NCBI GenBank assembly: GCA_963664435.2
Contig: CAXXKM010000003.1
Coordinates: 608,001-672,000, forward strand
Length of the DNA: 64,000 bases
Source: Longimicrobiales bacterium
GTDB lineage: Bacteria; Gemmatimonadota; Gemmatimonadetes; Longimicrobiales; Gaopeijiaceae
Direction: 5' to 3'
Part shown: in pieces, positions 25,991 to 27,399 of the stretch
Layout: each line of letters starts with the position of its first letter
Numbering within the stretch: position 1 is the stretch's first letter
The notes under the pieces: generated by a model
The model's database searches: none
Told to the model about the DNA's origin: nothing
Seen by the model: the letters and a program-made list of their open reading frames with translations, nothing else
Translations under genes and position numbers: made by a program

Positions 25991-26059
25991 TTCGTCCGAA
26001 CAAAAGGTTCAGGTCCGTCCAAACGAAAGATCAGAGTTCGTCCAAACGAAAATATCGGG
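25991..26059. repeat. Three 23-bp-period repeats (core cgtcc[a/g]aac) downstream of the AAA ATPase gene
   Basis: cgtcc starts at 25993, 26016 and 26039. Confidence 0.88.
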
Positions 26060-26082
26060 CGGCAGCCAACGTCCCGGACAGC

Positions 26083-27333
26083 CTATTCCGCGCCCTCCGC
26101 CACCCGCCGCAGCGGCACCGCGAACAGCCGATCGCCAAACGGCACCGTGACTTCCCCATCGTAGAGAACCACGCCGCCGGCAAACCGCTCGCCCAGTGCC
26201 TCCCGGAGCTTCCGGAGACCGCGAAAGTCCCCTGGTCGCACCGTTCCCGACGCCTTCACCTCGACGCCCGCGACCCCGGTAGCGCCACGCTCGATGACGA
26301 TGTCGACCTCCGCCCCGTCCTTGTCACGGAAGTGGTGGAAGGACATGCGCGCATCGTTCCAGCTGGCCTGTCGCCGAAGTTCCTGGAACACGAAAGTCTC
26401 GAGAAGCTGGCCGAACAGGCCACGGTCCCAGGCCAGAGCCGGACCGTCCAGACCGAGAAGCGCGGCGGCGATTCCGGTATCGGAGAGGTGCAGCTTCGGC
26501 CGCTTGATGAGCCGGCTCAGGCGGTTGGTGTGCCAGGCCGGAACGCGCTCGAGAAGGAAAACCCGCTCGAGCAGCGTCGTGTAGTCGCGTATTGTGGGCC
26601 GACTCACCTCGAAGGGCGCGGCCAGGTCGCTCGCGTTGAACGTCCTCGCGGTCTGGCTTGCGGCGCCCGTGAGCAGCCGCGGCAGGATCTCGAGCTTCCG
26701 GATGCTCGCCAGATCGCGTACATCGTGCTGAACCAAGGCGTTGACGTGATCGCTGTACCAGTTGGCGCGGCGGCGCCCCGGCGGGCGGGTGAGCGCTGCC
26801 GGATACCCGCCGGCGACGATGCGAGCGGGAAGCTGGTCACCCAGCCGGGCGGTTTGTTCGATCGCGAACTCCGCCGCGAAAAGGGCATCCAGGAAACCGG
26901 AGTCACGCTGCTGCAACTCGCACTGCGCCAGCGGATGGAGCCGGAGCGTCTGAAGGCGACCAGCCAGCGACTCCGAGAGTTTCGGCACCAGGAGGACGTG
27001 CGTGGAGCCGGTGAGCAGGAATCGTCCGGAGGCGCGCCGCCGGTCGATCTCCATCTTGAGGGCGGTGAACAGCGCGGGCGCTCGCTGCACCTCGTCCAGA
27101 ATGACTCGCTCGGGGAGGCCGGCGGCGAACCCCAGCGGATCCTCCTCGGCGGCGGCGCACACCACGTCGTCGTCGAAGGTGACGTAACTGTATCCGCGAG
27201 ACCCTCCGACCATCCGGGCCAGCGTGGTCTTGCCACACTGGCGGGGCCCGTGAATCAGGACGGCCGGCGAGTCCGCGAGCGCTTCGAGAAGGTGCGGCTC
27301 GACAAAACGAGGATAAAAGGTGGTGTCGATCAT
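26083..27333 (-). CDS. AAA_14 ATPase with DUF4143 (wHTH and C-terminal PD-(D/E)xK-like region)
   Basis: GPRQCGKTT, ILDEVQR, LLTGS, ESLAGR, GGYP, KLHLSDTG, EVDIV...GVEVK. Confidence 0.92.
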   Translation of the reverse strand: MIDTTFYPRFVEPHLLEALADSPAVLIHGPRQCGKTTLARMVGGSRGYSYVTFDDDVVCAAAEEDPLGFAAGLPERVILDEVQRAPALFTALKMEIDRRRASGRFLLTGSTHVLLVPKLSESLAGRLQTLRLHPLAQCELQQRDSGFLDALFAAEFAIEQTARLGDQLPARIVAGGYPAALTRPPGRRRANWYSDHVNALVQHDVRDLASIRKLEILPRLLTGAASQTARTFNASDLAAPFEVSRPTIRDYTTLLERVFLLERVPAWHTNRLSRLIKRPKLHLSDTGIAAALLGLDGPALAWDRGLFGQLLETFVFQELRRQASWNDARMSFHHFRDKDGAEVDIVIERGATGVAGVEVKASGTVRPGDFRGLRKLREALGERFAGGVVLYDGEVTVPFGDRLFAVPLRRVAEGAE

Positions 27334-27399
27334 CGTCCAAACGTAGCGTTTTTATCGTCCAAACAAAAAAATAGGCTTCGTCCAAATGAAATAATTGGG
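27332..27399. repeat. Three 22-23-bp-period repeats (core tcgtccaaa) abutting the start codon of the AAA ATPase gene
   Basis: cgtcc starts at 27334, 27356 and 27379. Confidence 0.88.

Follow-up and report, generated by a model that had tools for sequence, protein, structure and literature searches.

Plasmid iteron systems encode an autoregulated Rep protein and carry a second set of repeats that titrates it, as with incC and incA of P1 and incC of F. Looping between auxiliary operators is familiar from lac O1/O2 and lambda OR-OL, and the C proteins of restriction systems are both leaderless and autoregulated. Mobile elements that combine an NTPase with a restriction endonuclease have reportedly been proposed as well, by Zhang et al. 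in 2016.

The gene considered here belongs to PDC-S01, a family whose members have an ATPase fused to a PD-(D/E)xK domain. The accessible text of the source that describes it ranks PDC-S01 as the fourth most common defence system of prokaryotes and gives validation as pending for most PDCs (PMC12988326). In a second study, again as far as its accessible text goes, one PDC-S01 representative was challenged, along with seven other candidates, with T4, T5 and T7; four of the eight protected, and it was not one of them (PMC12881386). The accessible literature on PDC-S01 reports no substrate, trigger or regulation, and in that on PDC-S01, COG1373 and DUF4143 repeats are undescribed; Zhang et al. 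2016 and the supplementary files of the PDC preprint could affect how novel the features reported here are.

Here, one PDC-S01 gene from a 64,000-nucleotide stretch of a Longimicrobiales genome (the window, meaning the whole of that stretch) is compared with its relatives. What is new in the window is a conserved clade in which the gene is bracketed by twin arrays of direct repeats, accompanied by relics and by changes of slot. The explanation favoured, at a probability of roughly 0.55, is that the gene encodes an autorepressed ATPase-nuclease and that the downstream array would serve as a selected auxiliary operator, acting by looping or by titration. PDC-S01 genes are among the most abundant predicted defence genes, and a cognate DNA site offers a handle for work on binding, structure and nuclease activity; if the gene represses itself, plain cloning may show no defence. 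The two-array clade also constitutes a natural experiment, in which one array can be set against two and in which gene-less relics and allele replacements are represented.

The gene, its product and its surroundings

The gene occupies 26083..27333 on the minus strand and encodes 416 amino acids; its assignment draws on Pfam, PADLOC, a structure model and conserved residues. The domains read as an AAA+ ATPase (STAND / Orc1-Cdc6-like), a winged helix and a nuclease domain of the PD-(D/E)xK type, with Pfam matches to AAA_14 (E 3.6e-23) and DUF4143 (E 1.7e-45) and a match to the PADLOC profile PDLC04790 (PDC-S01) over residues 5-411 (E 1.9e-160). The locus had been put forward in the first-pass annotation as a possible undescribed system, but the gene family is already known as PADLOC PDC-S01 or COG1373. 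Across 44 sequences the Walker residues G29, G34, K35, T37 and E81 are invariant and D80 is nearly so; E312, D344 and K360 are likewise invariant and E358 nearly invariant, and the catalytic roles of these last four residues are presumed from general knowledge of the PD-(D/E)xK fold.

The structure model of the 416-residue protein has a mean pLDDT of 90.6. Its fold matches, which span residues 1-294, are headed by two archaeal AAA+/winged-helix ATPases, PAB2304 (2qen; Z 15.8, rmsd 4.3 A, 255 residues aligned) and SSO1545 (2fna; Z 15.0, rmsd 4.1 A, 253 aligned), followed by NLR and Avs STAND cores; Foldseek matches for the model include Orc1/Cdc6-DNA complexes. A sequence search of solved structures returned matches at the level of the P-loop only. 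The closest relatives of the gene come from Gemmatimonadota/Longimicrobiales assemblies, and the labelled sequencing runs that contain the stretch are sponge metagenomes. The host genome (G000) has 13 further AAA_14/DUF4143 paralogues. Among those at C2:217657, C1:1126884, C1:1250763, C1:844785 and C2:523673, several have upstream repeats of their own, and two paralogues in this genome have an inverted repeat in place of an array.

On one side the gene converges with a class V aminotransferase gene (24299..25987, plus strand; open reading frame and Pfam), the true start of which is probably later in the reading frame, and on the other it diverges from a gene of the sodium:dicarboxylate symporter family (27504..28673, plus strand; open reading frame and Pfam). 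A promoter scan places a sigma70-like sequence, TTGTCA-18-TATGAT, at 27415..27444 on the plus strand, facing the symporter; it is absent from gene-less alleles that retain arrays. A complete Azaca (ZacABC) defence system lies at 17824-24286 (minus strand), 2-8 kb from the PDC-S01 gene; mapping of L001 shows at least one relative that lacks it at the corresponding position. Elsewhere in the window are an integrase-core (rve) IS-like element at about 10677-12270, found by way of locus L094 and with three matching copies in the genome, a PIN-domain gene (29649-30026, minus strand) and a gene for a 1431-residue protein with Ig-like domains and leucine-rich repeats and a weak metallopeptidase match (32595-36890, minus strand).

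Phased repeats on both sides of the gene

On the coding strand the repeat unit comprises a 13-bp core, TTTCRTTTGGACG, and an unconserved linker of 9-10 bp, giving a period of 22-23 bp. All units lie on the minus strand, and all were identified from the sequence and by matrix scan except the third upstream unit, identified from the sequence. Upstream of the gene the units are, in order, TTTCATTTGGACG (27379..27391), TTTTGTTTGGACG (27356..27368) and CTACGTTTGGACG (27334..27346), the last of which adjoins the ATG and contains a -10-like TACGTT at 27345-27340, six bases 5' of the start codon. From the 17-bp spacing, the first six bases of the second unit would stand at the position of a -35 box, to which they are a poor match here. 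Downstream, two units of the same sequence, TTTCGTTTGGACG, at 26039..26051 (about 30 bp past the stop) and 26016..26028, are followed by a degenerate third, TTTTGTTCGGACG (25993..26005), with no -10 variant and no ATG behind it.

The six repeats reported in the first-pass annotation to bracket the AAA_14/DUF4143 gene are confirmed and form the only such arrays in the genome. The near-identical pair of units described there also exists, but it is made up of the first unit of each array in the direction of the gene, 1340 bp apart, and not of the last ones. The window has seven matches to CGTCCRAAY, six of them on the same strand in the two triplets (25993, 26016, 26039, 27334, 27356 and 27379) and the seventh isolated at 35146, against an expectation of 3.0 +/- 1.6, and seven or more occurred in 3 of 100 shuffles; the phasing, not the bare 9-mer, is the significant feature. 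Genome-wide (4.51 Mb) there are 127 matches, which cluster only in the two triplets and in one unrelated 27-bp pair, and a weight-matrix scan of both strands for units 21-24 bp apart found only the two arrays at the locus. Rfam gave no match in four loci.

The upstream array as a candidate operator

The upstream array is common to the whole subfamily. With GTDB loci as the training set, a weight matrix detects it in 54 of the 56 that could be evaluated and in all 74 evaluable held-out metagenome loci (80 were fetched); in the latter, successive units are 23 bp apart 260 times and 22 bp apart 37 times. The last upstream unit in the subfamily reads TTACAATTGGCCG, with the start codon 0-3 bases on, and an A occupies the third core (-10) position in 94% of 109 last units as against 6% of 263 inner units. 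The TACAAT of this last unit would be a -10 box, with the transcript starting at or near the ATG, and TTTCAA or TTGCAA in the preceding unit, 17-18 bp upstream, would provide the -35 box. A consensus promoter scan of the window did not call this predicted leaderless promoter, the -35 match of which is poor. Because the -10-like TACAAT of the last unit lies just 5' of the ATG, the upstream array is most likely a self-operator on a predicted leaderless promoter.

Under autorepression, the protein itself would bind the repeats, with one protomer on each 13-bp core by way of the winged helix, as Orc1/Cdc6 binds origin boxes. Occupation of the upstream array would shut the gene's own predicted leaderless promoter, and such repression would keep a potentially toxic nuclease scarce. 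The suggestion that the repeats are phased sites for the protein itself had been made from the sequence of this locus, and comparison across genomes goes some way to support it: the array travels with the gene, and motif classes track paralogue clades that have distinct predicted recognition helix sequences. Shared descent could nevertheless explain this agreement of motif and helix on the tree, and because ancestry alone could yield it, the agreement does not show co-evolution. Among distant paralogues a periodic motif of their own is found upstream in 46 of 82, and elsewhere it is found downstream in 7 of 81, inside the gene in 2 of 82 and further upstream in 11 of 81. That a host transcription factor, and not the PDC-S01 protein, binds the repeats is very improbable, as hosts of many phyla have the same motif alongside the gene and the host genome contains no array besides these two.

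In relatives with an upstream array only, the gene that follows immediately is often one for restriction-modification (type I or other), NERD or UvrD (downstream of L010, L026, L036, L048, L237, L239, L247 and L278, among others), and several of these downstream reading frames overlap the stop. About 15 of 44 co-directional downstream reading frames of such relatives match restriction-modification, NERD, helicase or RhuM-type families. Given this arrangement, the operator may control whole defence operons.

A second array kept in one clade

Among the held-out loci, 73 in number, a single one, a relative at 98% identity, has the downstream array; among 57 GTDB loci it is present at 10, of which nine belong to the clade of the window and one (L029) to a separate branch. 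Within two sponge-associated Gemmatimonadota genera, designated g1 and g70, it is found at 10 of 10 and 20 of 26 genes, respectively (30 of 36 combined), and at the remaining six g70 genes only one unit or a degenerate pair lies downstream. The matching downstream cluster, from which a one-gene cassette had initially been proposed, is thus kept in close relatives but absent from most homologues, which weakens the proposal for the family as a whole by one of its own refuting conditions. With six g70 genes reduced in this way and nearly all other relatives lacking a second array, that array must be regarded as dispensable, a point against the favoured explanation. The L029 locus (about 2295-3842) is an independent bracketed case on its other branch, with seven upstream and five downstream units.

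Where it is present, the downstream array looks to be under selection and not a neutral relic. Pairwise identity across 27 downstream arrays is 0.85 in the cores, a figure inflated because units were matrix-selected, and 0.36 in the linkers; four-fold sites in the corresponding genes stand at 0.59. On inspection by eye, the third unit lacks the in-register TAC variant in all 31 downstream arrays. A second gene start behind the array was considered and rejected for the same 31, for which the gene-start score averages -44.7, compared with -47.9 for the control and +46.2 for true starts. The case for selection lies in this combination of cores that are kept, linkers that drift, a missing -10 base and the lack of a second start.

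The array might alternatively be a remnant of a tandem gene copy since lost, persisting neutrally. In G205, G215 and G216 the final GTCGATG of the third downstream unit matches that of the terminal upstream unit, which makes an origin by duplication plausible, and both the decay at six of the 26 g70 genes and the persistence of arrays in gene-less alleles would fit a leftover. Neutrality is nonetheless decidedly improbable given the excess of core identity over that of linkers and synonymous sites in two genera, the retention of the array at 30 of 36 genes and the absence of any sign of another gene start; the array probably originated as a relic but is unlikely to have persisted neutrally. 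In the favoured model of autorepression with an auxiliary operator, the downstream array would have arisen by duplication of the upstream one and, having lost the promoter base, been retained by selection, and it would tighten control by looping the DNA or by soaking up protein.

That the array blocks or insulates against transcription converging from the host side, as a protein roadblock, or marks the locus so as to shield it from its own nuclease, is quite unlikely. In favour of such a role, no intrinsic terminator was found between the gene and the convergent aminotransferase gene, and by a rough call of reading frames the next one is convergent in 8 of 10 bracketed loci. Against it, of the 78 upstream-only loci for which a neighbour was called, 34 also have a convergent one and no such array; both counts depend on reading-frame calls, which GC-rich DNA makes noisy, and the bracketed loci are related to one another.

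Gene-less alleles and changes of slot

Alleles at the aminotransferase-symporter junction vary among 18 congeners. Eight have the full unit. In two, both arrays remain around a spacer of about 75 bp; a single array is left in one, a lone unit in another and nothing in two more. Among the remaining four, G009 has the gene at another site, G001 has a remnant and two are without the locus. Gene-less forms with arrays nest among full ones on trees of rpoB and of flanking genes and therefore appear to be derived losses. The empty site with one triplet that had been predicted does exist, in G013, but it appears to be one of these losses, the nesting speaking against a pre-insertion site. The 75-bp spacer derives from a G009-type allele, whose 3' end it matches (z 6.9 and 5.2; 0 of 300 shuffles), so that the slot has held two alleles, and in G199 an intact copy is accompanied, 5 kb off, by a remnant 94% identical to the allele of G198 and 81% identical to G199's own. 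The remnant in G001 (L093 6419-7822) is 96% like the allele of G009 and lies directly against another AAA_14/DUF4143 paralogue, which is encoded on the other strand. Under the autorepression model, an incoming gene of the same specificity would make the resident redundant, and the resident would decay.

Internal deletions that leave both arrays in place are found in G003, G010, G195, G228 and L061. In G003 and G010 the arrays kept by the gene-less alleles are strong, and no cognate gene was found in these genomes, which are 87% and 96% complete; this is not explained by simple selection for binding and counts against the autorepression model. High-scoring arrays, in genomes with no cognate gene found, are present in the gene-less relics L098 (1259-1480), L099 (1249-1445), L340 (G228) and L342 (G230).

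The position of the gene varies as well. In g70 it stands before or after six backbone markers depending on the genome, always in one orientation, while 15 markers hold a single order; G196 and G225 form a reciprocal pair for the slot, and there are at least four order-defined slots in one neighbourhood, in addition to other neighbourhoods. Between G196 and G199 the gene distance is 0.027 and the rpoB distance 0.192, which indicates a lateral move, and the gene of G009 groups within the other genus. One-sided transfer from a G223-like donor together with a neighbouring gene was considered for G196/G199 and is not supported, as the neighbour groups with the host relative G225. By the evidence of marker order and trees, the gene has switched slots and hosts over evolutionary time. 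Such moves are rare, as gene clades match slots and, with few lateral moves, mostly host clades; the correlation of host and gene distances is 0.29 (36 genomes). In the autorepression model the locus would be a defence hotspot, where general recombination has shifted the bracketed unit from slot to slot and from host to host. That only the gene changes order among 16 g70 markers is explained poorly by such passive movement and counts against the favoured explanation.

These changes of slot raise the possibility, which seems unlikely overall, that array, gene and array together make up a minimal selfish element. An Orc1/Cdc6-like ATPase-nuclease would recognise both ends, and the nuclease of the bound protein would cut alongside them, leading to excision or local recombination; the element would thereby relocate itself within its neighbourhood or between co-resident sponge symbionts and displace a resident of the same specificity. 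If this were true, PDC-S01 would consist, at least in part, of mobile elements. Besides the g70 slot changes on a constant backbone in one orientation and the reciprocal pair, it would account for the lateral moves and for the internally deleted forms that retain both arrays, and the accessible text of a review links NTPase+REase genes with transposable elements (PMC5289972). Shared sequence between slots also stops at about the outer limits of the two arrays (-65 to +1317 in one case, with edges at -61 and +1316), as would be expected of an element's ends, although selection on binding sites would give a similar result and breakpoints in close pairs scatter by tens of bases.

Much else stands against such an element. 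All 36 carrier genomes have a single intact copy, never two; no repeat unit was found at vacated slots in 528 kb searched, and no target duplication was seen, though filled and empty pairs are only 80-90% alike and the empties appear to be vacated slots. Dispersed miniature elements find no support in searches with two-unit patterns: matches among 61 genomes are confined to this locus, and across the searches of 61 and 314 genomes those examined fall at the gene, at relics or at an orphan array (G230), with two more in G142 and G160. No excision joint at the arrays was found in assembled contigs of four runs, but contigs drop rare forms and so do not weigh against excision. Viral contigs gave no match to the repeat pattern, and seven viral loci encode more distant relatives of the protein. 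In g1, the genus that this control covers, paralogues with an array upstream only occur in no fewer flank contexts than the bracketed gene: four contexts among six loci and three to four among six, compared with two among ten. The protein has no match to a DDE, HUH or recombinase transposase family in Pfam or NCBIfam. The signs that a self-mobilising cassette would leave, duplicate copies, footprints or sharp common ends, were looked for and not found, and moves, as noted, are rare.

Comparison with known systems

In architecture the closest parallels are Orc1/Cdc6, SSO1545 and PAB2304, which share the combination of AAA+ and winged-helix domains and with which the binding of directly repeated boxes would be a further likeness. 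Sequence identity to these proteins is 13-18%, and PDC-S01 has an extra nuclease domain; its repeats, unlike those of Orc1/Cdc6, are on the gene's own predicted promoter and not at a known origin. For PDC-S01 itself, the accessible text mentions no cis repeats, promoter or mobility (PMC12988326).

Tn7-type TnsA/TnsC and the proposed NTPase+REase mobile elements resemble the locus in pairing an AAA+ ATPase with a restriction-fold nuclease and in having several binding sites at each end, which here are candidate sites. The ends here are direct and not inverted, there is no DDE transposase, the gene is single copy and no target duplication was seen; among the 25 longest inverted pairs none joins both ends as terminal inverted repeats would. 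Plasmid iterons share the arrangement of two phased sets of direct repeats around one gene, one set on its promoter (here a predicted one), but the protein matches no Rep family (only AAA_14 and DUF4143 in Pfam and nothing in NCBIfam), no plasmid homologue of the protein was found at 60% identity or above, and the locus is on a 1.79-Mb contig amid host genes. On the features examined, the gene is outside both the iteron-replicon and the insertion-sequence families, although it shares with insertion sequences the occupation of different sites in related genomes.

Regulatory systems offer the remaining parallels. As in lac O1/O2 and lambda OR-OL, a second, promoter-less site lies about a kilobase off, and as in C proteins a candidate operator would overlap a predicted leaderless start, with restriction-type genes downstream in upstream-only relatives. 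In contrast with all of these, a single polypeptide here would serve as both regulator and nuclease, and the sites are not palindromic but directly repeated. The locus has one feature of two-operator systems, a conserved second site without a promoter.
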